A stretch of 64,000 bases of DNA from Pedobacter sp. (lineage in GTDB: Bacteria > Desulfobacterota > Desulfuromonadia > Desulfuromonadales > Syntrophotaleaceae). Of the stretch, positions 41,050 to 60,093 are shown one piece after another. Numbering within the stretch: position 1 is the first letter of the stretch; each line of letters begins with the position of its first letter. Made by a program: the position numbers and the translations under genes. Location: NCBI GenBank assembly GCA_050253415.1, contig JBFWJC010000001.1:1352679-1416678 (forward strand). Reading direction: 5' to 3'. Below the pieces are notes generated by a model, which saw only the letters and a program-made list of their open reading frames with translations, ran no database searches and was not told the origin of the DNA.

Positions 41050-42697
41050 TGTCAAGGTAGTTGTCGCCTCAGTCTCATTATGCTGCTTCACTACAAAGGT
41101 CCTCTTCGGGGGACCTTTTTCGGTCGGGATTGAGTCGAACGATCTCAATGGGCTCCCAGTTGCGTGTTTGCCCGGTCCAGCGACCGGGGTTTCTCTGCCG
41201 GGCCTGTTCGTAAACCTCCTTCCGCTTGCTCAACTTGGCGGCTTCTCGCCCATAGTGCCGATCGTCTGGCGTCACGAAGCGGATCTCACTATGCTGATGC
41301 GCGGTGTTGTACCAGTGGACGAATGCATCGACCCACCGTTGAGCTTCAAACTCAGAAGCAAAGGGGCGAGACGGATATTCCGGCCGATACTTCAAAGTAC
41401 GAAACAGTGACTCCGAGAACGGGTTGTCATTGCTGACGCCCGGTCGACTGAAGGAGGGAACGACGCCCAGGCGCTGCAACGTGGCCAGCATGGTCGAGCC
41501 TTTCATCGGGCTACCGTTATCGGAATGCAGCACTAGGCCCTTGGGATCAACCTTGTGGCGGTGAAAGGCTTCCACGCACAGCAACGCACTGTTCTGACCG
41601 CATTCTTTGGAGAAGGCAGTAGCGGCCATAATCTTACGGCTCCAGACATCCAGGATCATGTAGAGATAAAAGAACTGGCCGGTGATCGTGGACCTCAAAT
41701 AGGTGATGTCCCAAGACCACACCTGGCATGGCCCTGTGGCCACTTTCTTCCGAGGGCGGCGATGCGTGGCCGGCCGGCAGCGTTCCCGGTGGGCCAGTTG
41801 GTTCGCCTGCCGCAGAATCCGGTAAAAGGACGATTCCGACGCCACATATCGGCCTTCATCGGCCAGGCGGGGGACGATCTGCTTGGGAGACAGTTCCCGA
41901 TATATTGGTGAATTGGCAACCGACAGGACCTCCTGCCGCTCAACTGGCGTCAGCTTGTTGGCCGGTGCAGTTACTGGGCCATGATGCCGGTCCTCGTCAT
42001 CCTCCTGACGGGCCCAGCGCTGAATGGTGCGGGCAGTCAGTCCCAGCATCTGGGCGGCCGGTTTCAACCGGGCTCCCTGGCACATGGCCTCATCGACCAG
42101 TTCCAAGGCCTGCTGCCGCTCTAACGGTCGGTGTCGTCGCCCTCGTCCCCCCAGATTTCCTGTGCTTTTTTTTTGAGAACCAGCAACGCTGCGGTTTCGG
42201 CCAACGCCTTGTCCTTGCGCCTCAGTTCCTTCTCCAACTCCTGGATACGTTTGCTCTCGGCACGCTTAGCTTGTTTGGGCTCAAGGCCAACGAGCATCTG
42301 ATCACGCCACTGCTGAAGTTGGGCGTCATGCAATCCCCGGCTGCGCAAAAAGGCGCCGAACTCTTCTTCAGAAAGCGATGCCGCTTCCAGAACGGCCGCC
42401 AGCTTCTCTTCGGCACTCCAGTCTTGTGGTCGTTTCATATTGGACAGCCTCTGCATGGATTCGGTAAAGGATGGCGGCTCGGCATTGACAGCAATACCAA
42501 GCGTATCAGCTTCACTCACCCATCGGTAGAGCGAACTGCGGGAGACCCCTATCTCCTCTGCCAATGAGACTGGACTGGGCCCATCAGGGTCGGTCATTTT
42601 CTGAATCATTAGTGCTCTGAACGCTTTGGAATACATACGCCTCCTGACTGCCCCTCAATTCTTTTGAGTTCAGTTAGAGGCGACAACTATGCTGACA
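41050..42697 (-). mobile_element. Apparently intact IS3-family element (orfA 42636-42121, orfB ending 41078)
   Basis: IRs TGTCAAGGTAGTTGTCGCCTC / TGTCAGCATAGTTGTCGCCTC; A9G slippery site at 42174-42165; WSWDITY, HSDNG, SESLFRTLK. Confidence 0.95.
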
Positions 42698-43730: not shown

Positions 43731-44483
43731 TCAGTTTTGCCAAATTTTTCCAGTATTTACATCGCAGCCTGTGAGTTGGCCCCCGGCGCCTGCCCCGGTA
43801 TCCAATGATATTTCAAGTCCCTCCGTTCTTGGATTAAGAATCAGGGTATGGCCGTGCACGACGCATTGGTTCCAGCCGGTTTTATATCTCCAAAACCCCT
43901 CCCTGCTCCATAGCAGCTCATAGGGGTCCTGGTCGGCCATTCTTTTCCCCGGAACTATCCCCGCATGTACAAACAAATGATTGTCGGACTCATACCAAAG
44001 CTTTGTTGAGGCTAAAAATTTAATGTGCTCCCTAGGGATTGTCTCCAATGCCCTGCGGTAGGCGTTAAAAGTCTGAGGCTGGATCAAACCGTCATATGAG
44101 TCAATGCCATAGCTCTTTAGCGTTAAATCCCCGTGGTTTTGAAGCCACAGCCGGGTGTGCCTGAACTCTAAGGTGTCCATCCAGGCAATTTCGCAAGTCC
44201 ACAATTCTGAAACGGTATAGAGTAGGGGGACGCCCGTTTTGACCCCGGATTCAGTCAGGGCATCGAGAAATAATTGTTCATGATTGCCCCTCAGAAAAAC
44301 TGTTTGAGGGAATTGTTTTTGGAAATCGATCAAAAACTCGAGAACGCCCCGCGAATCGGGACCACGGTCAATGTAATCACCAAGAAAAACGAATTGGTCT
44401 TTTGGGCAGGGATTGATTTTGGCTATGAGGTTCTTGAGTTGATCAATGCAACCATGAATATCGCCCACTGCGATCACTCGCAT
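43731..44483 (-). CDS. Metallophosphoesterase (PPP/PrpA/lambda-phosphatase-like)
   Basis: GDIHG, GDYIDRG, RGNHE, FVHAG, HGHT, LDTG; GGGAG RBS. Confidence 0.93.
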   Translation of the reverse strand: MRVIAVGDIHGCIDQLKNLIAKINPCPKDQFVFLGDYIDRGPDSRGVLEFLIDFQKQFPQTVFLRGNHEQLFLDALTESGVKTGVPLLYTVSELWTCEIAWMDTLEFRHTRLWLQNHGDLTLKSYGIDSYDGLIQPQTFNAYRRALETIPREHIKFLASTKLWYESDNHLFVHAGIVPGKRMADQDPYELLWSREGFWRYKTGWNQCVVHGHTLILNPRTEGLEISLDTGAGAGGQLTGCDVNTGKIWQN

Positions 44484-44516
44484 ATTGCATCTCCCGATTG
44501 CCAATGGTGTGCGCCG

Positions 44517-44780
44517 CTACTTAAGCAAGCGGACTTTTTCGGAAAGGTCTTCGAGGATAATGGCCGCCAGTTTCTCCATGCCCTCCGCACGGATGTGTAA
44601 TACCTCACCCTCTGTTTCTTTGCCACTTTTAGAATTTTCTGCCTTATAACGGTAAATATGTTTTCCCAACGTATCGTACCAACTACCGCTTTGGGGCCCG
44701 CAATTATGGCCATATACGTTCACAATTTCCTGATTGTTTATCGCAATCTTGATGGAAAAGGGCACTTTGAGGTCCTCCAA
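44517..44780 (-). CDS. Hypothetical protein, 87 aa
   Basis: Protein-like ORF co-oriented with and 33 nt upstream of the phosphatase. Confidence 0.55.
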   Translation of the reverse strand: MEDLKVPFSIKIAINNQEIVNVYGHNCGPQSGSWYDTLGKHIYRYKAENSKSGKETEGEVLHIRAEGMEKLAAIILEDLSEKVRLLK

Positions 44781-45509: not shown

Positions 45510-46586
45510 CGGATCTATCCACCAAACAAAGGCTGCGGTATAGCAACACCGCCATAAATGGTTCGCCGAAGTTGGGTACCAACCGCTTGATTGAGAAGTA
45601 TTCCGAGTTGCTCCAACACCGGCTTCGCCTGCATCACGATCGTTGACAATCCGTTTCGCTTTTTTTCCACTGGGTCGGGGTTATTCCAGCGAAACACGAC
45701 CTCGCTGAGATACCGCGGCAAGTGGCGATGGCTGACAAAATGAAAGACGCCCTGCTTGGCCCTTTCGAGAATCGCATTGAAGGATTCGGCCGTGTTGACG
45801 TGAACTTTCCCTCGGGCAAATTCCTTGATGCCGTGGTGGACCCGCTCATGTCCCGCGAACTGTTTGCCGATCGCCACATAAGGTTGCAACTGGTCTGTCA
45901 TTATCCAAGAATCGGGCGCGACCACCTGTTTGACATAGGGTGCCAGGACCGCGTAGCTGTCACCCGGGATCATGCTGGCTTGGGCTGGGCCTTTGCGGCT
46001 AACGGCCACGTGGATACAGGCTTTCTTGGTGGATTTTCCCCGGGCATGTTTCACTCCCTGTTGGAACCTCGGTTTTCCTCCAAGGTATTTTTCGTCGAGT
46101 TCAACGATACCGTCCAGCAGTCCCAGGGAAACCGCATGCCCTGCCATCATGGCCCGAATGCCATGGCCAATTTTCCAGGCGGTCTTCTGAGTGACCCCAA
46201 GCCACTTGGCCAAGAAAACCGAAGAAACGCCTTTGCTGGAGTTGATCAGGAAATACATAGCCAGCAGCCAGGTCCGAAGCGGCAGCTTGGTACTATGCAT
46301 GGGCGTCTTTGTGGTCACTGTAAACTGCCCTTTGCAGCCGCTGCATTCATACAGTCCGGGCCAAGCAGAGGTTCCTGAGAGTGACCAGGACTTCAGGCAC
46401 CCACAGTGAGGACAGACCCGACCATGGGGCCAAACGACTTTCTCGAGATACTTCCGACAGGCCCCCTCGTTTGGAAACTGTTTGCGAAACTGTTTGAGAT
46501 TCATGGAAATCCCCCTTTCTGGAGGATATTCCATCAACACTGTGACGGGTTATGTCACAGCCACCTTCTTTTGGTGGATAGATCCG
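45510..46586 (-). mobile_element. Intact IS1595-family element (transposase 46540-45515) with 8-bp target duplication
   Basis: 17-bp IR CGGATCTATCCACCAAA; TSD TAAAAGTA at 45502-45509 and 46587-46594; Zn-ribbon CPHC/CSGC, VELDEKY, MTDQ, NTAESF. Confidence 0.97.
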
Positions 46587-46946
46587 TAAAAGTATAAATT
46601 TGAAAAATATAAAAATTTGTATACCACATTTTTGTATAACCCTTTTTCGTGTATTTTCAGTAGCTTGAAAATTGGTAAAAACTTATATGCTTTTAGCATA
46701 ATTCTTTTTGGATAATAGAGCATTCTAATTTTTCGCCATCTGCTCAATTCTTCGAAGGCTTCCTAGGGCAGGGAAGGTGGGTAATCTGTGACTGGATCCC
46801 AGCTTATGCGGAGAAGTTAGGATTCAGATCCGAACTGGCAGTCTTGTAAATCAGGGGTTGTAAGAATGTTTGAAAAATATCCAGGTACCACTGGAGGAAC
46901 AATCTGAGACAAATAATAGGATAGCTCAAGAGTAAGCCGGGCGTAT

Positions 46947-47234
46947 CTACGAAACTAGGGGCGATTCACTTTCATTTTCACACAAAAAAACAACCTCGTT
47001 GGCCCCTTCAGGGTGGGGTTTTACATGAACATGTAGAAACGCTTCATAAGATGGATAGATACCCATCGTGCTGTACGCGTCAATACCCTTGTCCTTCACA
47101 TTCAGGTCCGTGCGCCAGCAAGTAACCACCTGCCCAGTGTGAAAAATAACACCGTCGAGAACCCTTCCAGTCCCACTGATGCCTGATTGGTCGATTTTCC
47201 TGACCAAGGTGAAAAGTTTCGGATTAGTATTCAT
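46947..47234 (-). CDS. Small uncharacterised protein, fifth gene of the CBASS operon
   Basis: ATG 11 nt after the effector stop with GGAAGG RBS; FTLVRKIDQSGISGTGRVLDGVIF..GQVV..W motif. Confidence 0.8.
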   Translation of the reverse strand: MNTNPKLFTLVRKIDQSGISGTGRVLDGVIFHTGQVVTCWRTDLNVKDKGIDAYSTMGIYPSYEAFLHVHVKPHPEGANEVVFLCENESESPLVS

Positions 47235-47245
47235 CTGACGCCTTC

Positions 47246-48460
47246 CTATGCATCACGGTTTTTGTTTATTGTAAGTGCGTAAACAAAACCACTTGCCCCT
47301 TTGATTAAATCATAGACCCTGACTGCCGGATCGCATTTTGGCAACAGGGCTCGACCACATTCAATTGCTACTGGCGAAGGTGCGGCAATGAAAAGATTAA
47401 GTTCCTTTGTATGACCGTTTGCTGATCGTATCTTTGTCAATAATTGCCTGTACTCATAACAGAACATCTCCAGTTTCAATCGGCTCGAAAGAAAATCGAG
47501 ACCTGGCTTATCTGCCGTAATCTCATAGACATTGCAACCTTCACCGACAAGGTCGACCACCTTCTTCCGATCAACAACTCCACTGATAGATATTAATATT
47601 GAGGTATCAAAATCATCGTTATGCGTCTCTGGTTCAATTGTTCGATAATACTCCTTGCGAAAGTCATCAGGTTCGTCTTTCCATTTCCAATCCTTCGTGG
47701 TGCGATGTCTTTGGTATAAATCAACTGAATCAATATCGCCGATTAGACTGCCTAAGTAAGTCAACAGCGGAATGGGTCCTAAAGCAAAAACTGATACATG
47801 CATATAATCGCGGCGATTGGTGCCATGCTTGAAAATGTCATTGAATTTGGCCTTTATATTGCGAGATAAAATGCTCCAGTATCCCTCTTCAGTTTCCCTG
47901 TCTGCAAAGTCGGAAAAGTCTATAACGTCAGGGTGCTCTTTGGCCGGATAATTGGGCAACATAGCTTGATAAGCGAGTGTCTTGTCTATATTAAAATTAT
48001 TTCCGTCTATCGGGGCCTGGAATAGCAGCACGAGAGACTTGGCATCGTCCATTATGTCGGTGAGAAGCCTGATTCTATCCTCATGTTCTTTCTTGTATTC
48101 ACGTAAAAGCTCAATTGGATATGCGTGTACGTTCTCCTTGCTATCAATTATCTTGGCATGGTCCCTACATGTCAGCATAAGGTTCGAAATGTCTTTTGCA
48201 AGCCTGGGAGAATCAATTTCGTTTCCTCTCGGACCACCAGGTTCCGCTGCAATGATATGTGAAATTATCGAAAGATTATCTCTGGTCTTTGTCAATTCGT
48301 CCAAATACAAAGGCTTATTGCAGCCTCGGAATTCACATCTGCCTGCGGCTCTTGCCCAAAGTTCCAGCTGGGTCTTTGGAGGTATTGGAACGCGGCTTTT
48401 TTTCTTGCTCTTAGTTTTTGCTTTCGTAGCCTTTTGGCTTTTATCCTTTGGTTCAGACAT
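47246..48460 (-). CDS. CBASS effector, HNH endonuclease-SAVED (Cap5-like)
   Basis: LWARAAGRCEFRGC, SHI.A...GPRG, NLMLTC..H...ID; SAVED motifs SVFALGPIPLL.YLG, YQRHR...W.W, LFIAAP...AI..GR. Confidence 0.92.
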   Translation of the reverse strand: MSEPKDKSQKATKAKTKSKKKSRVPIPPKTQLELWARAAGRCEFRGCNKPLYLDELTKTRDNLSIISHIIAAEPGGPRGNEIDSPRLAKDISNLMLTCRDHAKIIDSKENVHAYPIELLREYKKEHEDRIRLLTDIMDDAKSLVLLFQAPIDGNNFNIDKTLAYQAMLPNYPAKEHPDVIDFSDFADRETEEGYWSILSRNIKAKFNDIFKHGTNRRDYMHVSVFALGPIPLLTYLGSLIGDIDSVDLYQRHRTTKDWKWKDEPDDFRKEYYRTIEPETHNDDFDTSILISISGVVDRKKVVDLVGEGCNVYEITADKPGLDFLSSRLKLEMFCYEYRQLLTKIRSANGHTKELNLFIAAPSPVAIECGRALLPKCDPAVRVYDLIKGASGFVYALTINKNRDA

Positions 48461-48472
48461 ATCCTCTCCAGC

Positions 48473-49009
48473 TTACAATAATTTCAGCAATGATATCATT
48501 CTCGAACGTCTATGCCCCTCCCACATCCGCATCTCGGATGTGCCCACTATCAGGAAAATGAGACTATCGCTGTCAACAATGTCATCTCTTAGCTTCCGTT
48601 TCCAGTTGGTATCGTCGATGCTTGACGGCGATGGATATGGTTCCGGGTGAGTATGCCACTCGCCCAGATACGTGCAGGTATGACGGCTTATTGCCCACTC
48701 CCTGTCAATTATTTTCTGATGTTCTTTCTTCTTCCTAAAGAAAGTGGTTCTCGTGCCCCTGTCACCCGACATTGGGAAAGAAATCTTGTCAATCACGATA
48801 TCTTGGGAGTCAATAATGTAGCGTCCCAACATGACGCCTCCGCCTTCCGGTTTGTGACGGTCATTTTGGACATAGCTGTGGATGGACGCAATTACCTCGG
48901 CTGGAAGCTTGATTCGGCCGCCGTTTGAACGGGCAAATACCAGGTCATTGCTCAGTTTCAAGGTATTGGCAGACAGGACAGTCTCCTCGTGAATAATCGG
49001 CAATTTCAA
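48473..49009 (-). CDS. cap3: CBASS JAB/MPN isopeptidase
   Basis: EGGGVMLGR, YLGEWHTHPE..PSPS..D; start uncertain. Confidence 0.92.
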   Translation of the reverse strand: MKLPIIHEETVLSANTLKLSNDLVFARSNGGRIKLPAEVIASIHSYVQNDRHKPEGGGVMLGRYIIDSQDIVIDKISFPMSGDRGTRTTFFRKKKEHQKIIDREWAISRHTCTYLGEWHTHPEPYPSPSSIDDTNWKRKLRDDIVDSDSLIFLIVGTSEMRMWEGHRRSRMISLLKLL

Positions 49010-50681
49010 TAAAATGGTCGGTTGAAGTAGAATATCTTGCTGACAGTATCTTGCCGCTCTTCAGAAACTCCGTTGCATCTCCACGCCACGAACGAATCAG
49101 GTTCGTTTGAACGTCCCCATTCAAGGTGGCAATTGCCAGTCTTGTTGCGAGTTCGGCCGTCTTCATGGCATCGAGTGACCCGAATGGCGTGAAGGCACCT
49201 CTGCAGCCATCGATGTTTTTGGTAAAAGACTGGCCTTTTTCGGCAAATGAAGCGCGGCACCGTATATCCCCGTCCTCGGGCTCATATAAACAGTTCAGAC
49301 ATTTTTCCCTGGCCCCGTTTAACCTGGTCAGCACAGCATGCCCACCGACACCATATGGCTCAAGCCAGGTGAAGATGACCGGGGGAGAATCGATGCCATG
49401 GACGTACTTGTTGAATGCCAGCTCGACGGTAACATTGCCAAGGGCAGATATTATGAGGTCAAAATCCCCTGCTTTGATTTTTCCTGAATCCAGTGCCTCT
49501 TCAAGTGACAAGGGAATTGGGAACACTTCGACAAATGGCAGCCTTCCTTCAATGTCCGCTTTGATGCCATCGACCTTATACTTCCGAACCTGCTTCTTCC
49601 CGAGAACATGACGAAATAGATTTTCATGGGCCAGAAGTTCTTTATCGAGGACGGTCAACTGCGAGATGCCGGCACGCGTCAGTTCGTTTGCGATGTAGCC
49701 ACCGACCGAACCGCACCCAAGAAGCAGGACCCGTTTTTCTCTCAGAGTCAGATTGCTACCGCCGCGGGGAAGAAGATACTCCTTGTCTCTCCTGATTACA
49801 GTTAAAGGGACTAGTTGGCCTACCCTCCCTCTATCCTTCAAAGGGTGTTCGTGGTTGACACCCTTGAACCTGACCCCAAATAGAGTCTTGCCATCAGCGG
49901 TACTGGGAAGTCCCAGTAGGATTGTTTCTTCGCGGTGTGGCCTTGATATGAGGGGCTGCAGTTGGGATCTCTGTTCGTGGTCAAGGTTGTCGAAAATTAC
50001 TTTGCGGATTTCGGCTAAATCCCAAAATTTTAAAGGGTGTGGAGGGGTGATTATTGTCCCCGGTTTCAAAGGTATGTATATGGCGGGATGGCGAGTCCAT
50101 ATATCATGGTCTGGGAGTCTCAGAAATCTTCTAAAACTCCCATTGTCATCTGCCAGATATCGGGTTCCGTCTTTCGCTTTATAGAGATGGACTTTCTTGA
50201 CTTGGTCGCCAGGCGATACTATGGAGGTAATGTCTTTTACTTTGTAAAGGCGGTCCCAGTAGGCCCCGAACTCGTCAATGAAATCACGATGGTTTTTCCC
50301 GGAAATCCCGTCCATCACGACCTGTACGGACATGGAAATCGATTCGTGAGTTACCCCCTCAATGTCCTCGGAATTGAGAACAGTACCTTCTTCCTCTGCA
50401 TAGCAGACATATCCATCCGTTTCCACATGGGGCAAGATGCCGAAGGCATCCCATGGGACCAGATAGATATAAGGAAGAGAAAGTGGGAACGACTTCTTCA
50501 CGCCAAAATAGAAAGAAGTCGGAGCTCCGTTTATCTCGATTTCCAACTGGTAGCCGCGGCAAACAAGGCGGTCCTTGGCCCATGACTCAGACAGGCGCTT
50601 TGGGTGAATGTCCGCAACGGATCTGACCAGCGGACATTTCCCCAGCGCCTCTTTCAGCAAGGATTCATCGTAATCAAGCAT
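48945..50681 (-). CDS. cap2: CBASS E2-E1 (ThiF) ubiquitin-like transferase
   Basis: E2: FP.SLP...PHVETDGYVC; E1: LLGCGSVGG, ENLFRH, CLNCL, GCRGAFTPF, CPVC. Confidence 0.93.
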   Translation of the reverse strand: MLDYDESLLKEALGKCPLVRSVADIHPKRLSESWAKDRLVCRGYQLEIEINGAPTSFYFGVKKSFPLSLPYIYLVPWDAFGILPHVETDGYVCYAEEEGTVLNSEDIEGVTHESISMSVQVVMDGISGKNHRDFIDEFGAYWDRLYKVKDITSIVSPGDQVKKVHLYKAKDGTRYLADDNGSFRRFLRLPDHDIWTRHPAIYIPLKPGTIITPPHPLKFWDLAEIRKVIFDNLDHEQRSQLQPLISRPHREETILLGLPSTADGKTLFGVRFKGVNHEHPLKDRGRVGQLVPLTVIRRDKEYLLPRGGSNLTLREKRVLLLGCGSVGGYIANELTRAGISQLTVLDKELLAHENLFRHVLGKKQVRKYKVDGIKADIEGRLPFVEVFPIPLSLEEALDSGKIKAGDFDLIISALGNVTVELAFNKYVHGIDSPPVIFTWLEPYGVGGHAVLTRLNGAREKCLNCLYEPEDGDIRCRASFAEKGQSFTKNIDGCRGAFTPFGSLDAMKTAELATRLAIATLNGDVQTNLIRSWRGDATEFLKSGKILSARYSTSTDHFIEIADYSRGDCPVCQYLETEQ

Positions 50682-51711
50682 GCGCAGATGCGCTCGCCGT
50701 GGCTATGGCGCGGCTCTTTTTTTCGCCGGTGTCTGGTTTTTCAGGAACAGGGAAGTCGTCCCCAAAGACCTTTCTCAGGGTTTCGCATGCCTTCACCGGG
50801 TCTACTTCACCGATTGCCGAGTCAAGAGCCTCCAGCAGACTTTCCAATTTCTCCTTCAGATTGGCCATCTGGTTGTCTGTCATCTTTTCGAACAATTCGG
50901 AATAGGGTTCGACTGGCAGGTACACCTTCAGTCTGTTTCCGAAGTTGTTCAGCATGCTGTTTACAACCCCTCGAATCGCTTGCAGGTCGTCGTACTTGCT
51001 CGTGTTCGCAACGGTATCCGTCGTCTTGTTTGGGGAAAACCATTCGTATACCGCGATGGTCAGGCCTATTCCGATAGGCGCGGCATTACCATTGGTAGAG
51101 AATTTGTGGTCCTTCCACCTTTTCAGATACCGTATCACCCTGACAAATTGCTTTTTGTCGTCGCCGGAATATCTGTTTCCAACAATGTCCGCCAATCCTT
51201 TAGGGTCTGATACTTCCCATGATTTATTGTTATCTGAAGAATTCAACTTTCCCTTTGCCAGACACTTCTTGCCGTCAGAGTTGCAAGACTCGTCGGAATA
51301 AATTGCAAGATCGACATGATACTGTGGTTCATCACCTTTCTGGTAAAAAACGGTTACACATGGCCTCCGCATGTCGACTTTTTTGGTATGGCCGTTCAAC
51401 GCTTCATACACCCATTTCTTGACTGCCACCGGGTCTGGATAGTCGTCTTTTGAGACATTGAAGGATACGCCGACATCAATATCATAATCACTGTCCAAAG
51501 GTATAACGCCGGTGCCCATTTTATAGCTTCCCTGGTCAAAAGTCTGGTACGTGGGAACCGGTTCATTCTTCTCCTCGAAAATCGCCTTCAGACGCGATTT
51601 TAGCTTATCAAGAACAATGTCCCTCTTTTCCCTTAGGGTCTGGTTCTCGTCGAATCGTTTGAGTTTAATTGCTTCATGAAAGGATTCGAAATGCTTTTGA
51701 ACGTCGGCCAT
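50674..51711 (-). CDS. cGAS/DncV-like nucleotidyltransferase (CD-NTase)
   Basis: QGSYKMGTG...DYDIDV, PCVTV, HVDLAIY, RYLKRWKD, FGDDFP; GGAGG RBS. Confidence 0.95.
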   Translation of the reverse strand: MADVQKHFESFHEAIKLKRFDENQTLREKRDIVLDKLKSRLKAIFEEKNEPVPTYQTFDQGSYKMGTGVIPLDSDYDIDVGVSFNVSKDDYPDPVAVKKWVYEALNGHTKKVDMRRPCVTVFYQKGDEPQYHVDLAIYSDESCNSDGKKCLAKGKLNSSDNNKSWEVSDPKGLADIVGNRYSGDDKKQFVRVIRYLKRWKDHKFSTNGNAAPIGIGLTIAVYEWFSPNKTTDTVANTSKYDDLQAIRGVVNSMLNNFGNRLKVYLPVEPYSELFEKMTDNQMANLKEKLESLLEALDSAIGEVDPVKACETLRKVFGDDFPVPEKPDTGEKKSRAIATASASAHA

Positions 51712-51728: not shown

Positions 51729-51782
51729 GTACAACATTTTGGGATGTTCCAGCAATATAGGTACGACATATTGTGTTGTCAA
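51729..51782 (-). promoter_or_regulatory. CBASS sigma70 promoter overlapped by tandem NrdR-box-like operators
   Basis: Minus strand TTGACA(51782-51777)-17 nt-TATATT(51759-51754); 16-bp boxes GTACAACATTTTGGGA (51729-51744) and GTACGACATATTGTGT (51761-51776). Confidence 0.75.
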
Positions 51783-52599: not shown

Positions 52600-52900
52600 G
52601 GGCGTTTTGGATTGCCAGTAGGACGGACAGTTTTAACGCCATCTACACTGACGACATAAACACCGATTGAGGCAAAAGTGCTACGGTGTGGACCGTCGTT
52701 ACTTCCAAACCGGGTGGGCATTGAGCAACGGCCAGCCATCGTCAAATCACGCAGTCGCTTCGGCGATTGGGAGGGCGGCTTGATGGTAGGTCCGGCAATC
52801 CGGTGCTCCTCGCTTCCCATGTGGAACGTAAAAAAACGCTACCAGAAGGTCTCGCTGCTTAAGAATTACAGGGCTGAAACTTTCAATACCGCAGTGATCC
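52600..52900 (+). mobile_element. IS30 transposase remnant
   Basis: LPNRVGIEQRPAIVKSRSRFGDWEG fragment with frameshifted flanks. Confidence 0.7.
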
Positions 52901-54018
52901 ATTTCTATCACCGATTGCCGGCAGCAATGCGATTGACGCTCATTGTAGGCCATAGTCGGTTGCAATTCTATTTTCTCAAGGAGGCGGATTTTATGCGAAT
53001 TGATGAGGCCGAAGGGAACTGGGCAACTAAATGCCTCAAGCATCGACCACGAAAGGGTATCAAGGGCCGGAGCCCTTTACCCTGGGGGAGGACCTATGTG
53101 GTTCACGTGCAAATTGAATCCGGTGACGGTACACAGCCGTCATTTTAATTAATTGGAAAAAATAATTTAAGCCACTACTGGGTGCCGATAGTGCGTTTAT
53201 TCCAGACAGAAGGCGACAATGGGCCTACAAAAAGATATTGAAAACTTCGGTACTCAAGCATCTTGATAGCTTTTTCCATTATTCTCTTCATAGCTTCTTA
53301 CCTAATTTTTTACGACCATCAATCTTGAATCTTTTCAATAATTTCCTCGACAATCAACAAAAAATCAATTCTGGCAAAGAAAATTTACATCGTCTGTGAT
53401 TGCTTATTTGGGCTATTCCTAACAACTTTGTTTGCCATCAATAACCTTAACATGAAAAGCTCGTACAGGTAATTTAGTGAGTGTTTGTACCGTAACAATA
53501 AACACAAAAAATACAATGAATGATAATGATTAGAGTTTACTGTATTGTAATAGAAAAATATGCAATAAAAAACCAATATCAGTTGTACTATAAAGTAACA
53601 ATTCAATACGTCTATTTCATGGTTTAATTAATAAAAAAACCAAACAATACACATCCTATTGACAAAAGGAAAGTAGTTTTGCGATCATACAATCATAAAA
53701 AGAATTTTTATCCCTTAAATAAGATATATGTAATCACAATACAGGATGGTCAGGTGAAACTTTTCACCCACTAAACACGTGGGAGCCCCGTCGATGAACA
53801 CCAACAACAACGACCATTCTACCGTGCATGTTCAACCGATTTCCGAACGGAAAGAACATGGTCAGCATCAAAAGTCACCTCTACACGAAGGCCCCAACTT
53901 TCGCGTATCTGCCTTTTCGCTTTGGCACCTGCCGAAACCCCTCTCTGATTTTGCGACACTGACCACTGATGTTTTTACCGACCCGCGATGTAACCGGACA
54001 AAAATAAAAGGAGCCGCC

Positions 54019-54612
54019 ATGAATACATGTAATTTCAGAGAATTAGGTGACGTCTGCCTGGATATTTTGACCATCAAGCCGCAGGCGCCGGCCACAAAGC
54101 GTTTGCCACCCACATACCTGTTTGTGGCCGTCGATCATGCCAGTCGCTGGGCTTACGGGGAGTTGCACCAAAGCAGGTCGGCCCTTTTTGTTGACTTTCT
54201 TGAAAATCTGGCCAAAAAAGCACCATTCAGAATACATACGGTTTTCACGACCTACGACCGACCCTTCCATGAACTTTTCGTCAACGGCAGAGCGACCATC
54301 AATGACGTAAACGAAACATTCAACCAAGCCTGTGTAAGACTCGGCATTGTTCATCGATCAACCCCGCCTTGGAGGCCAGTTGATGCCGGTGTGTTGGAGC
54401 GATTCCATCGCAGCATTGGGGAAGGCTTGAAAACGGCAGGAGGGATTTCACCCAAGGATTTTGCGCCCACCTTGCTGCGCTACCTTGAGCAATACAATGA
54501 GCACCTTCCCCAGCTAGTTTTGGGCCACATAACGCCCATTCAGGCTGTAAGGAGAGGTATTGCCTCTGCAACAAATGTGGGGGACAACAACCCTCTTAGC
54601 ATAAAAAGGTGA
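54019..54612 (+). CDS. IS481-like integrase-core-only ORF, catalytically degenerate
   Basis: YLFVAVDHASRWAY, PFRIHTVFT, ERFHRSI, YNEHLPQ..LGHITP; TDNG motif replaced by TTYD; AAGGAG RBS before MNTCNF. Confidence 0.65.
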   Translation: MNTCNFRELGDVCLDILTIKPQAPATKRLPPTYLFVAVDHASRWAYGELHQSRSALFVDFLENLAKKAPFRIHTVFTTYDRPFHELFVNGRATINDVNETFNQACVRLGIVHRSTPPWRPVDAGVLERFHRSIGEGLKTAGGISPKDFAPTLLRYLEQYNEHLPQLVLGHITPIQAVRRGIASATNVGDNNPLSIKR

Positions 54613-55320: not shown

Positions 55321-55562
55321 AAATTGCGGTGTCAGGGTGCTTGGGGACGGTCCAAGTGAAGTTTGATGATGTCTGGCAAGCTTCCATGGTCTTATCCCGG
55401 AGGGAATGGATATAAGTCAGGGGCCTGGGGCCTATGGATGATAAAGCAGCAATATAAAAGCCGTTATTGCGATTTTCGCAATTCCAAAACGGAAGTCCTT
55501 TCATCAAATAGCGAATGAGAAGAAAGAAAAAGCCATTAGCAGGTTCGGGAAAGGAGGACAGT

Positions 55563-56375
55563 ATGTCTCCACGAGCGCGCATTTCAGACAAAGGCAGAGC
55601 CCGTAAGGGGCGAGGCAAGGGCCATGGCAGAAATTACGAGCCGTGGATCAAAGTTGGCGACTACCCCGCAAATGTTGGATTCGGGGACAGGGTAAACGGT
55701 TTAATCAGCGGTCGTCCCACCCATACACTGTCGAGGTTGGAATTTGGTGAATATTTAACGTTGGAGAGGTGGCAGGATGTTGTGGATATCCGTGAAAACT
55801 ATCCTCTGCCCCCCGGGGAAACAAAAATCGTGGCAGACAGGCTTGGTTTGCGACATCCCGTTGAAAGAACAACCAAACAGCCCAAGACCTTAACCATCGA
55901 CCTTTACCTAGATATACTTGATAATGAAGGTTTTTTAATGCACGAGGCCTGGGATCTTAAAAAGAAAGCGCATCTGGCGCTGGCCTCGTATATGCGCCAA
56001 ATCGATATTAAGGAGGCGTATCTTGCCATTTACGACACCCCCTACCATATTGCTACTGAAAATGAAATCGACCCGATCCTCATCAAGAATTATTTTCTAT
56101 TACGGCGATATACCGGTGAATACTTTTCTGCCCAGCATTTGGCCCAGATCAACCATCTGGAGAAACTCCTTTGGCAAGAATTAAAAGATTCCAGGGAACC
56201 CGCTGCGCATGTCTGTACCCGTATAGATATCCAGCAGGGCTATCGTCAGGGTACGTGCCTGAGCACGGTTTACTACCTGATTTATCATCGATACTGGCAG
56301 GTTGATCTCTATGAGGAAATCAGGCCGGACGAAGGGCCTTTGAAGCTCTATCGTTTAAAAGCCGTAGAGGATTGA
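55563..56375 (+). CDS. tnsA: Tn7-like TnsA endonuclease
   Basis: GRGKGHGRNYEPWIKV.D, RPTHTLSRLE, DIRENYPL, LGLRHP, LTID; AAGGAGG RBS. Confidence 0.92.
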   Translation: MSPRARISDKGRARKGRGKGHGRNYEPWIKVGDYPANVGFGDRVNGLISGRPTHTLSRLEFGEYLTLERWQDVVDIRENYPLPPGETKIVADRLGLRHPVERTTKQPKTLTIDLYLDILDNEGFLMHEAWDLKKKAHLALASYMRQIDIKEAYLAIYDTPYHIATENEIDPILIKNYFLLRRYTGEYFSAQHLAQINHLEKLLWQELKDSREPAAHVCTRIDIQQGYRQGTCLSTVYYLIYHRYWQVDLYEEIRPDEGPLKLYRLKAVED

Positions 56376-56397
56376 AAGCCTCCCAGGGGGATGGGAA

Positions 56398-58578
56398 ATG
56401 AATATCGCGATTGGCAATATCCTGGAGTGGCTCGATCCGGAGTTTCCGGACGAGGACCGGGCCCCATCTTCAGAAGAAACGATCTCCCGTGAGCGCGTTT
56501 TGTGGGGTGATGCAGATGTAATTGTATCCATCCCCATGTCGAGGCCGCACAAGGGGGCAGGTGATGGTATGCCGGTGGTGCACCTGAGGAGCAAACTGGA
56601 GCGTGCCCTAGAGGAAAATCGACTGTGTATCAATCGTGATTTTGATCCTTATGGTCGCTTGTTAATTCTCCCCTCCGAATACAAAGAGAAACACGCTGAG
56701 CATCAGAAAAAAGCATGGAACGCGATCCAAGACATCGCGAAAAAGGAACCCGGAATTTACGACCCGGGGACTCGCGGTCGCTTGGTACGACAGGCAGCAC
56801 ATAAGCATAAGGTGTCCCGCCCCTACATTTATAAGCAATTACGGCGATATTGGGTGGCCGGGAATATACTCGAGGCTCTGCTTCCTGATTTCTTCCACTG
56901 CGGGCACATCCCGCAGGGGCAGGAGTTTAAACATTCGAAGAATTCATTGGAAACCAAAATTAAGATTGTCAAGGGAATTAAAAAATTCGGGGGCGGTGGA
57001 AAGACAGGCCAGAACTTAAATGATGACATTTGCGAAGAGTATTTTTCAGAGAAAGATGTTTTAACGGAAAGACGACTGATATATCCGACGGCACCATCTG
57101 TCCATGTCACAAATTACTATAGGAAGCTATTAAGAGATCACGATCTCAAGTGGTATATAATCAATCAATTCGGAATCAATAAATTCAAGAAGCTTTTTAG
57201 ACCGTTATTAAAAACATCCCAAACCTATGTGTCCGGTCCTGCGGATACTTTTCAAATTGATCATACTGTAGCAGATATTTATTTGGTTAATAAAGACGAT
57301 CGCTTATTAATAATAGGCCGTCCTATGGTCTATATCGTTATCGATGTTTTCTCCCGCTTAATTACGGGAATCTTTGTCGGATTAGAAGGTCCGAGCTGGG
57401 AAGGCGGCGCCAGTCGGGCTTTGCTCAATGCATTTTCCCCGAAGTTGCCCTTTTTGCAGGAACTCGGAATGGATGAATTGTTTTGGGATGTCTTGGGGGA
57501 AAGGCTGGACGAAAGTACTTGGCCGGCTGACTGTATACCCGCCAGGGTTTTGGGCGATTTTGAAATCGTTTCGCAAAAAGCTGATGCACCGATAATGCCG
57601 CTCGGCATTACTTTTTCCAATACGCCTTCGCGCCAACCTTGGGCGAAAGGGATTGTCGAGGCGCAATTCCGCGTATCTAAAGATTACTTCCTGGATTGGG
57701 CACCTGGAGCGGTCGATGAGTGGAGGAAGGAGGTGGAGGGCCGAGATTATAAATATGATGCCATTTTCACTTTGGAGGAATTTACAAAAATACTTTTACT
57801 GTACGTTCTTCTTTGGAATGATCACCTTCTTCCAAAATACAAGCTGGACAAGGCAATGATCCGGGACCATGTGCAACCTAGACCGAAAGAGCTTTGGCGG
57901 TGGGGGTGGGCCAATCTCTGCGGCCTTCCTAATCAGCGTAGTAGGGAGGTGTTGGAGCTTGCTTTGCTGCCACGGAAGACGGGGCGGGTAACCCAGTTTG
58001 GGCTTGAATTTGGGAAAAAAACTTACGTGCCTCAATGTGAGGATGCCGAGGAAATTCTCCTTCGGGCTTCCTACTTTAATCCATATGAAGTGGAGGTTTC
58101 CTACGATTCACGGTCTGCCGAGTGCGTTCTCATGCATGACCCCGAAAAGCGGCGGGTAGTGCGATGCCTGCTGAATCTTCCAAAGGAACGTAGTTGTGTC
58201 GGGGTCAACGAAGAGGAAACCCGGGTTCTCGATGCAGCTAAAAGTAAACTGATTAACGCTGCCGCTGCGGGGGAACGGCAAAGCCGGGTGGATAAGAGGC
58301 AGGTTGGGAGGCGGATAACCGAAGAAGCTATGGCGGCCCACGAGGAGGCACGGATACTGGGGCCGGATACGACAAAGCGAAGGCGTGGCGATGTAGCCAA
58401 AAATCGTGCCGACGAGGTACGGACCCGGGCCAGTGAAAAACATGGTGAACAGGGCGAACAGCAAGCTAGGCCGGATATTCCCGATGCAAAAGATGAAGAT
58501 AAGAAGTCCGGGGATGCAGGGATTTTCGATCTCATGTACGGGAAGGGGGCGGATCATGAAGAACCTCGAAAGCATTGA
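56398..58578 (+). CDS. tnsB: Tn7-like TnsB DDE transposase
   Basis: LRRYW, GP...FQIDHTVADIYLV, GRP.VYIVIDVFSRLITG, GPSW, KGIVE..F. Confidence 0.93.
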   Translation: MNIAIGNILEWLDPEFPDEDRAPSSEETISRERVLWGDADVIVSIPMSRPHKGAGDGMPVVHLRSKLERALEENRLCINRDFDPYGRLLILPSEYKEKHAEHQKKAWNAIQDIAKKEPGIYDPGTRGRLVRQAAHKHKVSRPYIYKQLRRYWVAGNILEALLPDFFHCGHIPQGQEFKHSKNSLETKIKIVKGIKKFGGGGKTGQNLNDDICEEYFSEKDVLTERRLIYPTAPSVHVTNYYRKLLRDHDLKWYIINQFGINKFKKLFRPLLKTSQTYVSGPADTFQIDHTVADIYLVNKDDRLLIIGRPMVYIVIDVFSRLITGIFVGLEGPSWEGGASRALLNAFSPKLPFLQELGMDELFWDVLGERLDESTWPADCIPARVLGDFEIVSQKADAPIMPLGITFSNTPSRQPWAKGIVEAQFRVSKDYFLDWAPGAVDEWRKEVEGRDYKYDAIFTLEEFTKILLLYVLLWNDHLLPKYKLDKAMIRDHVQPRPKELWRWGWANLCGLPNQRSREVLELALLPRKTGRVTQFGLEFGKKTYVPQCEDAEEILLRASYFNPYEVEVSYDSRSAECVLMHDPEKRRVVRCLLNLPKERSCVGVNEEETRVLDAAKSKLINAAAAGERQSRVDKRQVGRRITEEAMAAHEEARILGPDTTKRRRGDVAKNRADEVRTRASEKHGEQGEQQARPDIPDAKDEDKKSGDAGIFDLMYGKGADHEEPRKH

Positions 58579-60067
58579 CGCGGCTGAAACTTTCGGATCC
58601 CGGGGACCCATTTTCGGCAATAAGGTTCCGGCAAGGTATTTTCCATCGGCGGATCCCATGTTCAGGCACAATCCGCTTATCGAAGCGTTACCGCCAATTA
58701 TGGCGGTCGATGAGTTTACCAAAGCGGCCAGTTGGTACCCGGCTTATGATGAAGAGGAAAGGAAGAAGCCGTTAGAGTACCGCCTTATCGCGAGCGAAAG
58801 GATTAAAACACTCGTGGAGCCCCTGCCGCCATTTGTGAGGTTTTATTATTCATTGTGTGGTCAGCTCCGCTTTGGATATTTGAGCCGAAACCCTCCACGA
58901 CCGGCTTATAAAAAACAGTTGGAGGAAAGTTTTCCCGATAAAGAGTTCTCTGAGGACCCGTACCGCATGCCCGTCTTGCAGAATGCGGCATCCGGGTCAT
59001 GTGTCCTCGGTATCAGCGGTGTCGGCAAGACCACTTTAATCGAAACGGTCCTGAAGCTGATTCCTCAAGTCATTATTCACAGTGAATATGAAAACGAGCA
59101 ATTTACACAGCAGCAACTTGTCTGGGCATATGTGTGTTGCTTCCGCGGGAAAACTTTGAAAAATATCGCTTTCCAGTTTTTGTATCAGGTAGAGCTGTTA
59201 CTTGGCTACCCATGTTTTAGCAATTGTCATGGAAAAAGGTGGGCTGAAAAAGATATTTTGATGGAAATGGCAAGGGTTGCCCGGACGGTAAAGCTGGGAG
59301 CCCTTGTAGTTGATGAAGTGCAAAATTTGCAATACGGAGAGTCCAAAACAGGGCAACAGAGGAGGGGGTATTCCTATCCCCCATCGCTGTTGACGGCTTT
59401 GGTAACATTTTCGAACCTATTTAGGGTGCCAATCGTTTTTGTCGGAACACCGGAAACCGGGCCTCTCATAGGGAAAAGCATGCCTTTATCAAGGAGGGCA
59501 ACGCAAGGTGGCAAAATAGAGGTAGATCGTTTGCGCCCAGGACGGGTATGGGATCAATTTTATGAAACCTTATCCCGTTATCAATTTCAAAAAAAACCGA
59601 TGCAGGATAATGATGAAATCAAAAAGGCCTTTTATGAAGAGACCCAAGGGATCATAGGTGCCCTGGTGAGCCTGTTTACGGCTGTGCAATGGGAAGCCAT
59701 CTATTCAGGGGTGGAAGCGATATCCGAAAAACTAATCCGTGAGGTGGCGAGAACCCATTTAGGACCGTTGTATCCCTGGATCAGGCTTATAAAGGCCGGG
59801 AAAGAAAAATTTTTTTCAACGCCACAGGTATTGGAGTCCGATCTGTCCCATGAAGCTTTTGTTGCGGCCAGTAAAAGAAACACTAGATCCGCAAAAGACC
59901 AAAATGGGGGCGAACGAGCGAATGAAAGGGGAAAAAGTAATTCGGCCGGTCGGGAGAATGTGCTCACTGCAAGTAAAGATGCTCGCGCAAAAAAAAGGAA
60001 AAAAGCGAAGGAAAATTACGAAAAATTAAAAAGAAGGGGGCTGATTGCGGACGGAGAACGGGAATAA
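58556..60067 (+). CDS. tnsC: Tn7-like TnsC AAA+ ATPase
   Basis: NPLIEALPP, Walker A GISGVGKT, Walker B LVVDEVQ, VPIVFVGT. Confidence 0.94.
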   Translation: MKNLESIDAAETFGSRGPIFGNKVPARYFPSADPMFRHNPLIEALPPIMAVDEFTKAASWYPAYDEEERKKPLEYRLIASERIKTLVEPLPPFVRFYYSLCGQLRFGYLSRNPPRPAYKKQLEESFPDKEFSEDPYRMPVLQNAASGSCVLGISGVGKTTLIETVLKLIPQVIIHSEYENEQFTQQQLVWAYVCCFRGKTLKNIAFQFLYQVELLLGYPCFSNCHGKRWAEKDILMEMARVARTVKLGALVVDEVQNLQYGESKTGQQRRGYSYPPSLLTALVTFSNLFRVPIVFVGTPETGPLIGKSMPLSRRATQGGKIEVDRLRPGRVWDQFYETLSRYQFQKKPMQDNDEIKKAFYEETQGIIGALVSLFTAVQWEAIYSGVEAISEKLIREVARTHLGPLYPWIRLIKAGKEKFFSTPQVLESDLSHEAFVAASKRNTRSAKDQNGGERANERGKSNSAGRENVLTASKDARAKKRKKAKENYEKLKRRGLIADGERE

Positions 60068-60093
60068 AACAGAAGGTAGGAGGTGTTTAGGTT

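Follow-up and report, generated by a model that had tools for sequence, protein, structure and literature searches.

An Acb5-family branch linked to Cap5 effectors in CBASS operons as a candidate operon-encoded signal nuclease

What does a small fifth gene do at the end of a bacterial defence operon? We asked this of a 64,000-nucleotide stretch of Pedobacter sp. DNA (contig JBFWJC010000001.1, positions 1,352,679 to 1,416,678), hereafter the window, which contains a type II operon of the antiphage signalling system that is based on cyclic oligonucleotides (CBASS). To our knowledge, CBASS is usually described as an abortive-infection system of two to four genes, without a dedicated signal-clearing enzyme. 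The type II set is present and co-oriented, with genes for a nucleotidyltransferase of the cGAS/DncV-like kind (CD-NTase), Cap2, Cap3 and a nucleotide-sensing effector recognised by Pfam, PADLOC and NCBIfam (Table 1). The effector, encoded by gene 4, combines an N-terminal HNH nuclease with a C-terminal SAVED domain and resembles solved Cap5 chains, and we refer to it as Cap5-like. An earlier interpretation based on the letters of this DNA (the sequence-only reading) had placed a 95-amino-acid open reading frame (ORF), here called gene 5, 11 nucleotides (nt) past the stop codon of the HNH-SAVED gene, with a ribosome-binding site of its own, as the fifth gene of the operon. We confirmed the ORF, the spacer, the GGAAGG motif and the four upstream genes. 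We propose, with a probability of roughly 0.55, that gene 5 encodes a signal nuclease that sets the threshold for Cap5 CBASS or resets it.

Gene 5 is a real gene and not a chance ORF. Its product matches the family profile with an E-value of 8e-38, all 241 candidate proteins match at E <= 1e-3, and an exhaustive search returned 318 clusters (at 50% identity) at the same threshold. In each of 12 comparisons with orthologues the proportion of nonsynonymous differences (pN, 0.06-0.29) was far under that of synonymous differences (pS, 0.51-0.96, with synonymous sites near or at saturation), and the single unsaturated pair gave a ratio of nonsynonymous to synonymous rates (dN/dS) of 0.07. Since pN is low relative to pS and dN/dS is 0.07 in the one unsaturated pair, gene 5 is under purifying selection.

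The likeness to small phage proteins that the sequence-only reading had pointed out holds, and the family can be named. The gene 5 protein belongs to phrog_7499 in PHROGs (function unknown, E 6e-14), tblastn recovered relatives in 94 Streptomyces phage records, and 27 viral contigs encode relatives as well. In the ESM Atlas, where PF26761 bears the name Acb5, its three best matches are Acb5 clusters (scores 0.91-0.92). A word-indexed protein search returned 241 homologues, with PF26761 on all 120 of those listed; the assignment comes through the precomputed annotation of these homologues, as the Pfam set of our direct scan lacks PF26761. Scans with that Pfam set, NCBIfam and PADLOC assigned the gene 5 protein to 0 families (Pfam, 0 at E <= 0.1), PADLOC has no model for the Acb5-like CBASS component, and a full-text literature search for the identifiers PF26761 and phrog_7499 found no paper. 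By BLASTP the protein aligns with gp122 of Streptomyces phage Jay2Jay (34% identity, E 7e-13), whose translation is identical, letter for letter, to the KM652554 entry in the homologue table of the preprint that describes Acb5; Jay2Jay, SF3 and NootNoot, three of the 94 phage records, are present in that table. Because three of the phage records stand in the preprint's table, and Jay2Jay gp122 is a listed entry that aligns at E 7e-13, Acb5 membership is secure, and on sequence grounds we regard the gene 5 protein as a near-certain member of the Acb5 family (PF26761, phrog_7499).

This family carries a function with it. According to the preprint, Acb5 is a phage protein that blocks 3'3'-cyclic GMP-AMP (3'3'-cGAMP) CBASS; IMG/VR contains 1480 homologues, and among INPHARED phages the protein occurs in 96, most of which infect Streptomyces (10.1101/2025.07.12.664507). 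It cuts 3'3'-cGAMP and cyclic UMP-AMP (cUA) to 2',3'-cyclic mononucleotides, the products of Acb5A being 2',3'-cAMP and 2',3'-cGMP; a homotetramer is predicted, in which two pockets of positive charge lie between pairs of protomers; and mutation of R10, W38 or H61 in Acb5A abolishes the anti-defence activity (10.1101/2025.07.12.664507). The Acb5 family is already known as a viral anti-defence enzyme, and the new part is the Cap5-linked branch. We found no description of Acb5 homologues within CBASS operons in those parts of the Acb5 and CBASS literature that the search covered, subscription papers lying outside it, and the literature on Cap5 accessory genes, five-gene CBASS operons, ring nucleases and off switches yielded nothing on the operon-encoded Acb5-like gene.

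One branch of the Acb5 family is physically linked to Cap5. We surveyed the neighbourhoods of relatives of gene 5, calling CBASS neighbours by single-sequence phmmer, by which very divergent CBASS genes could be missed. The same five-gene layout occurs in six of the nine genome loci that encode relatives (L002, L003, L005, L006, L007 and L008), each with the HNH-SAVED gene adjoining, and in one of 27 viral contigs (L011). The neighbours of L011 gave no Pfam match, and the viral class of its contig is not confirmed as phage; the other 26 viral contigs gave no match to the window's four CBASS proteins (phmmer, E <= 1e-5). Metagenomes were scanned with patterns from the close branch (alignment A2), and the best 80 of 107 relatives were retained. 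The small ORF is intact in 79 of these best 80 loci, and 65 of the 79 are informative, the sequence upstream of the domain being 400 nt or longer. An HNH-SAVED gene adjoins the small gene in 48 of these 65 (47 by phmmer and L104 by PADLOC), and all four upstream genes are present at 23 loci across all collections. A reverse survey with the effector as query matched three genomes among 401 from the phylum (one of them the genome the window comes from) and three viral contigs, which is too small a sample for a frequency.

The small gene stays beside the effector when gene order and system change. Three gene orders keep it beside Cap5: in most loci Cap5 comes first and the Acb5-like gene second, and L104 and L046 show the other two. 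L054 (113-3611) has Cap5 and the Acb5-like gene followed by two cyclase genes; L104 (1-1036) is a fragment reading Cap3, Acb5-like and HNH-SAVED (Cap5), with the small gene ahead of Cap5; and L046 (2886-6043) reads cyclase, E2, Acb5-like and Cap5, with a different cyclase family, in an E2-only CBASS that lacks E1 and JAB. Where the effector lies upstream (49 junctions), the two genes overlap in 24 cases (14 by 4 nt, four by 8 nt and six by 29 nt) and are separated by gaps of 2-30 nt in 20; four junctions lack a canonical start and one is interrupted. At L090-L093 no ATG, GTG or TTG stands at the expected start of the small gene and the frame is open from the effector stop onwards, and the question arises whether the start is unusual or the coupling works by re-initiation. 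The small gene of L088 (6986-7240) contains an in-frame stop, being either a pseudogene or an assembly error, and still follows a complete CD-NTase-Cap2-Cap3-Cap5 series.

Effector and small protein have diverged together. Among 40 distinct pairs, the effectors share 25-100% identity (median 41) and the small proteins 42-100% (median 60), and the two distance matrices are correlated (Mantel r 0.65), a value reached by none of 2000 permutations. A tree of 218 rows places every one of the 48 CBASS-linked rows in a single subtree of 71 rows, with a support of 94 in the Shimodaira-Hasegawa-like approximate likelihood ratio test (SH-aLRT). The same subtree also includes seven unlinked rows, eight with too little flank and eight context-free representatives. 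The family is otherwise dominated by viral rows, and of the 23 in the tree, 20 are found in its other half. The direction of transfer between hosts and viruses is not readable from it, because the tree is unrooted and built on 96 columns.

Linkage of this kind could also arise if gene 5 were counter-defence cargo of a mobile element, its product cutting the signals of other CBASS systems resident in the cells entered while the operon's own signal, for example through a 2'-5' bond, resists; gene 5 would then be an offensive gene travelling alongside a defensive one, with no part in regulating its own operon. The setting fits such a role, as the operon lies among mobile genes (Tn7-like tnsA, tniB-like and tnsD/tniQ at 55.5-62 kb, and insertion sequences (IS) of IS3, IS1595, IS30 and IS481 type), the contig of one locus with CBASS and an Acb5-like gene (L011) has a viral classification, a solo copy of 90% identity (L004) lies by primase and TraH/TraF genes and other solo copies lie by transposases or integrases, and the wider family is a phage anti-CBASS tool (10.1101/2025.07.12.664507). 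However, the overlaps in 24 of the 49 junctions and the three gene orders suggest that the gene is bound to the effector itself, beyond sharing a vehicle with it, and occasional hitch-hiking would not lead one to expect a pair that diverges jointly until effector identity falls to 25%. We consider the cargo explanation unlikely.

Counterparts of R10 and W38, two of the residues that matter in Acb5A, are retained in the linked branch, together with two histidines. In alignment A1 (60 sequences), R12, S20, G21, G23 and F66 are invariant, and F8, D15, G18, V25, G28, G34, W40, H70 and H74 are at least 90% conserved; R12 and W40 are both invariant in alignment A3. The motif pointed out by the sequence-only reading is present and coincides with these invariant and near-invariant columns (F8, R12, D15, G18, S20, G21, G23, V25, G28, G34, W40, F66, H70 and H74). 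The 28-residue spacing between R12 and W40 equals that between R10 and W38 of Acb5A. MAFFT and BLASTP both align H70 with the first histidine of the Acb5A H-G-H motif, and only this first histidine, the gene 5 protein having H70-x3-H74 in its place; H-x3-H-P is the form that most members of the family have, those of phages among them. R12 occurs in 47 of the 48 distinct CBASS-linked copies and W40, H70 and H74 each in all 48, and the same four residues are retained at 93-99% in the 129 other family rows compared.

This pattern also bears on a further proposal of the sequence-only reading, that the small protein is a target for Cap2 conjugation, to which the CD-NTase would be attached, and on the related ideas of a decoy or of a mimic of a phage protein that baits a phage factor. 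The phage-type family, which in some phages is fused to portal or DUF2213 head proteins, would suit such a role. The gene nevertheless stays beside Cap5 in the L046 operon, where an E2 is present and E1 and JAB are lacking, and the conservation is that of a nucleotide pocket; we regard this as most improbable.

Structure prediction gave a picture compatible with the family. The AlphaFold2 (AF2) monomer of the gene 5 protein has a small, beta-rich fold that includes two short helices, with a predicted local distance difference test score (pLDDT) of 89.7 and a predicted template modelling score (pTM) of 0.78. Predicted as four copies with two molecules of 3'3'-cGAMP, the homotetramer scored 0.84, against 0.00 for the best of three controls; in the benchmark of this score, 20 of 30 proteins whose solved form is a pair of one chain came up to this mark, as did one of 23 solved as single chains. 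The runs share at least 88% of contacts, with a partner pLDDT of at least 77. One predicted interface consists of strand-strand pairing of residues 27-39, and the other involves the SGxSG loop (17-20), the strand 52-62 and residues 64-73. These figures express the confidence of a model; on their basis, the gene 5 protein probably forms a homotetramer.

The fold has no close counterpart among solved structures. Foldseek against the PDB returned nothing at E <= 1e-3, the best match being transthyretin (E 0.2, template modelling (TM) score 0.28). When the fold was compared with 48,161 chains by VIA-align, Mediator Med18/20 ranked first with Z 5.1, and CYTH-type cyclases, HipS and KhtT appeared as weak rows. 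None of these reaches the level that counts as meaningful for this tool, and the 50 best rows include no nucleotide sponge. A PDB profile search returned nothing relevant and no solved Acb5 structure, with two weak rows at E <= 10 (E 0.59 and 1.5). In BFVD the protein matched only uncharacterised family members of Streptomyces phages and Haloarcula viruses. The sponge of the Acb2, Acb4 or Tad class that the sequence-only reading had put forward finds no support here, given the lack of a sequence or fold match in Pfam, Foldseek, the 50 best VIA-align rows and the PDB profile search, a result that covers the families listed there.

How would such a protein act within the operon? A Cap5 relative digests DNA nearly completely at 20 nM ligand (PMC12804361), and a DNA-degrading effector of this kind might need a signal sink to hold it back. 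We suggest that the gene 5 protein is a host-operon version of the phage anti-CBASS nuclease Acb5, co-produced with the Cap5-like effector and tetrameric. By analogy with Acb5A, its inter-protomer pockets would bind the operon's cyclic dinucleotide, and the 3'-5' phosphodiester bond or bonds would be cut by transesterification, leaving 2',3'-cyclic phosphates. The protein would serve as a constitutive signal sink, destroying the traces made by a leaky or Cap2-primed CD-NTase, so that the DNA-degrading Cap5 would fire only once synthesis outruns degradation; leftover signal would be cleared afterwards. It would work alongside Cap3, which acts on the cyclase protein. The sequence-only reading had spoken of a protein that buffers or degrades the cyclic signal to prevent autoimmunity. 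The part of it that stands is that the family acts on a cyclic-nucleotide signal; degradation by the gene 5 protein is the best explanation, and we infer its catalytic activity, substrate and regulatory role by analogy.

The same chemistry could serve a different end. A signal converter would turn the CD-NTase product, or a phage-made or otherwise foreign nucleotide, into the species that is sensed by Cap5 or another receptor, or would yield 2',3'-cyclic mononucleotides with a role of their own. The products of Acb5A, 2',3'-cAMP and 2',3'-cGMP (10.1101/2025.07.12.664507), and the linkage of the gene to the receptor-bearing effector and not to the cyclase would both suit it. Conversion is very improbable, however, as characterised Cap5 is activated directly by cyclic dinucleotides with no helper (PMC12804361), and our results contain no pointer to a second receptor.

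Several observations weigh against an operon-encoded signal nuclease. Characterised CdnG-Cap5 systems use 3'2'-cGAMP (PMC12804361), and the accessible parts of the Acb5 preprint do not report cleavage of this signal (10.1101/2025.07.12.664507); if it is the signal here, a transesterase that depends on the 2'-hydroxyl could cut only its 3'-5' bond. A constitutive nuclease acting on the operon's own signal would, as a qualitative objection, lower defence. The counterpart of Acb5A H61 is ambiguous, since H61 lies beside a three-residue length gap, and H74 is only its likely equivalent. The CBASS-linked branch has fixed residues of its own (P5, R24, D27, H32, Q35, C39, R41, D43, S55 and A65) and carries an insertion of about 10 residues, which could mean a changed substrate or a changed function. 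Support for the tree is weak, with 96 columns and the key split not starred. The metagenome sample is biased to the CBASS-linked branch and includes near-identical contigs. Of its 65 informative loci, 17 in the same branch have no detected CBASS gene, their neighbours being transposases, integrases, a phage Gp157 gene or ordinary genes of the chromosome, and three of the nine genome loci lack CBASS (L004, L009 and L010), the latter two in ordinary chromosomal settings. Finally, the independently sampled Cap5 homologues L120, L121 and L123 have no Acb5-like ORF within the fetched flanks, and for this reason we regard the Acb5-like gene as an accessory that only some Cap5 systems carry.

The branch-specific residues and insertion, with H-x3-H in place of the Acb5A H-G-H, would also agree with a non-catalytic partner that has lost nuclease activity or never uses it, either a sponge that buffers the signal or a protein that binds Cap5 directly, as an inhibitor or as an immunity-like subunit produced with it in a constant ratio. 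Coupled translation with the effector is typical of complex-forming proteins, and the screen by which Acb5 was described was aimed at sponges with such pockets (10.1101/2025.07.12.664507). Yet R12, W40, H70 and H74 are kept in 47 or 48 of the 48 linked copies and in 93-99% of the 129 other rows, as expected for an unchanged active site, and the H-x3-H-P form is that of most of the family, phage members included. We hold a non-catalytic role to be quite unlikely, and retain the signal nuclease as our preferred explanation.

If gene 5 is compared with phage Acb5, the two are alike in sequence family, small size, beta-rich fold, conserved arginine and tryptophan positions with a likely counterpart for the histidine, and predicted homotetramer. 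They differ in location, gene 5 being part of a bacterial CBASS operon, next to the effector, where Acb5 is carried by phages; in lineage, gene 5 falling in a separate branch that has about 10 fixed residues of its own, an insertion of about 10 residues and H-x3-H where Acb5A has H-G-H; and in the expected role, which would be self-regulation for gene 5 and is immune evasion for Acb5. The closest parallel comes from type III CRISPR immunity. There, the Crn2/AcrIII-1 (DUF1874) ring nucleases form one family with which viruses disarm the defence and hosts switch it off from the defence locus. The logic is the same, namely a family of cyclic-nucleotide-degrading enzymes used by the virus and by the host defence locus, whereas sequence and fold are unrelated as far as tested (no Pfam match), and the Crn2/AcrIII-1 enzymes act on cyclic tetra-adenylate, within CRISPR rather than CBASS.

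Other negative regulators of CBASS act differently. Cap3 in type II and Trip13/Cap6 in type III CBASS act on the CD-NTase protein, by deconjugation and by HORMA disassembly, respectively. They are also operon-encoded brakes, and Cap3 is present in the same operon as gene 5, but their target is the CD-NTase protein and not the nucleotide signal. Acb1 (a 2H phosphodiesterase), Acb2, Acb4, Tad1 and Tad2 are all small viral proteins that remove cyclic-nucleotide immune signals, and for none of them did Pfam, Foldseek, the 50 best VIA-align rows or the PDB profile search return a match to the gene 5 protein in sequence or fold; Acb5 itself is described as lacking structural homology to Acb1 (10.1101/2025.07.12.664507). 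In an October 2026 preprint, CBASS is contrasted with type III CRISPR with respect to a dedicated signal-clearing enzyme, and the cellular ring nuclease Csx15 is proposed to degrade CBASS cyclic nucleotides (bioRxiv 10.64898/2026.10.26.761840). Csx15 rarely adjoins CD-NTase genes and is thought to act in trans (bioRxiv 10.64898/2026.10.26.761840), whereas gene 5 is inside the operon and its relatives often overlap the effector gene.

We see about an even chance that the Acb5 branch is a hard-wired part of Cap5-type CBASS operons and the first dedicated operon-encoded enzyme to degrade a CBASS messenger, a counterpart of the CRISPR ring nucleases. If so, CBASS would have an intrinsic off switch, which would account for the silence of an effector able to degrade DNA at nanomolar ligand, and nuclease-armed CBASS would be threshold-gated and possibly reversible and not purely suicidal. 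One enzyme family would serve host and virus to opposite purposes, in the manner of Crn2/AcrIII-1. This would be a second case of an anti-defence enzyme homologous to a defence regulator, and would raise the question of which came first. There is also a consequence for annotation, as tools that call every Acb5 homologue anti-defence would mislabel host genes, and CBASS models (PADLOC) miss a component.

Table 1. Features of the CBASS operon and of the neighbouring Tn7-like gene set. Coordinates are positions in the 64,000-nt window; all five operon genes are on the (-) strand.
Feature	Position	Strand	Details
Promoter-like site	51754..51782	(-)	TTGACA, 17 nt spacer, TATATT; 11/12 matches; just upstream of CD-NTase start; consensus scan only
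CD-NTase, gene 1	50674..51711	(-)	345 aa; Pfam DncV-like_NTFase E 3e-14; PADLOC cyclase PDLC00795 E 3e-132
Cap2 (E2 + E1/ThiF), gene 2	48945..50681	(-)	578 aa; Pfam Prok-E2_B E 2e-33, ThiF E 9e-19; PADLOC E1-E2 E 3e-164
Cap3 (JAB isopeptidase), gene 3	48473..49009	(-)	178 aa as called; Pfam Prok-JAB E 2e-15; PADLOC JAB E 4e-52
Cap5-like HNH-SAVED endonuclease effector, gene 4	47246..48460	(-)	404 aa; Pfam SAVED E 6e-42; PADLOC endonuclease effector E 9e-119, SAVED_HNH E 2e-110
Spacer between effector and gene 5	47235..47245	(-)	11 nt; contains GGAAGG ribosome-binding site; read from sequence
Acb5-family protein, gene 5	46947..47234	(-)	95 aa + stop, ATG start; predicted homotetrameric cyclic-dinucleotide nuclease
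Terminator-like hairpin, T-rich tail	46880..46895	(-)	52 nt after gene 5 stop; consensus scan only
TnsA C-terminal domain	55515-56375	(+)	Tn7-like set
726-aa ORF in TnsB position	56398-58578	(+)	no family match
AAA_22/TniB-like ATPase	58406-60067	(+)	Tn7-like set
TnsD/TniQ	60094-61977	(+)	Tn7-like set

The nearest NCBIfam model of the CD-NTase is 'CBASS cGAMP synthase' (E 4e-39, under its cut-off) and its closest solved chains are 8ysc and 8ysd (E 5e-101). Gene 2 overlaps gene 1 by 8 nt, and the gene 3 product matches the NCBIfam Cap3 model with E 9e-32, under its cut-off. The effector aligns with the solved chains 8ysq (E 5e-93), 7rwk (E 3e-53), 8fm1 (E 3e-18) and 9dif, an 'HNH endonuclease' (E 6e-17). 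A literature search found no relevant paper for the PDB entries 8YSC, 8YSD and 8YSQ, the closest solved relatives of the CD-NTase and the effector.

Gene 5 is probably made together with the Cap5-like effector. The effector stop codon lies at 47246-47248, the junction on the (-) strand reads TAG-GAAGGCGTCAG-ATG, and the Shine-Dalgarno-like GGAAGG stands 6 nt ahead of the gene 5 ATG. Promoter-like sites in the region are no more numerous than in shuffled sequences, as judged by the consensus scan. Four RNA-labelled libraries contained short contigs only, for which DNA carry-over is possible and uncovered parts are uninformative. One contig of 232 nt (X16, from a library whose kind is guessed) spans the junction between effector and gene 5 with zero differences, and a true metatranscriptome contig (X20) falls within the effector gene, with DNA carry-over possible for both.

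DNA near-identical to that of the effector and gene 5 (46880-48500) occurs in metagenome assemblies whose labels are landfill, sediment, groundwater, hydrocarbon, shale gas, oil and biofilm. Twelve metagenome rows contain half or more of the words sampled from this segment, and four rows possibly represent the source sample. In a plasmid collection the small protein had three weak matches.

The surroundings of the operon are rich in mobile genes. Tn7-like transposition genes (55515-61977, +) lie 4 kb from the CBASS operon, which may be cargo of a Tn7-like element. IS genes are found on both sides (41078-42636, 45515-46540, 52678-53148 and 53779-54612). They comprise IS3-type orfA/orfB and, immediately after gene 5, an IS1595-type transposase gene; fragments resembling IS30 and IS481 lie upstream of the promoter-like site. 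Gene 5 is located in a chromosomal CBASS operon within a Tn7-like, IS-rich region, unlike phage-borne Acb5, and this location has no bearing on the homology between the two. Below the operon, a calcineurin-like metallophosphoesterase gene (43731-44780, -) lies between two IS elements, followed by an 87-aa ORF without family; the best NCBIfam likeness of the phosphoesterase is to bis(5'-nucleosyl)-tetraphosphatases, far under the cut-off, and it may be a nucleotide-related enzyme close to the CBASS operon. Outside the window, the solo copy at L004 (1334-1603), 90% identical to the gene 5 protein and without CBASS, adjoins a DnaG-type primase and TraH/TraF conjugation genes, where the CBASS-linked branch could have been reused by a conjugative element as a counter-defence gene.

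In other members of the family the Acb5 domain is part of a larger protein. The beta-propeller proteins P0147 and P0233 were not counted as fusions, as their 7-11 matching stretches look like repeat matches to the glycine-rich motif. The fusion cases are the proteins P0237, P0161, P0234 and P0235 and the locus L023 (4651-7251), and there are further fusions to Clp_N and to a phosphomannomutase. Among the large virion-type phage proteins that contain the domain are P0237, a portal protein that also has a MerR domain, and proteins of 655-875 aa with DUF2213. These virion-protein fusions suggest that the nuclease is possibly packaged and delivered with the virion.

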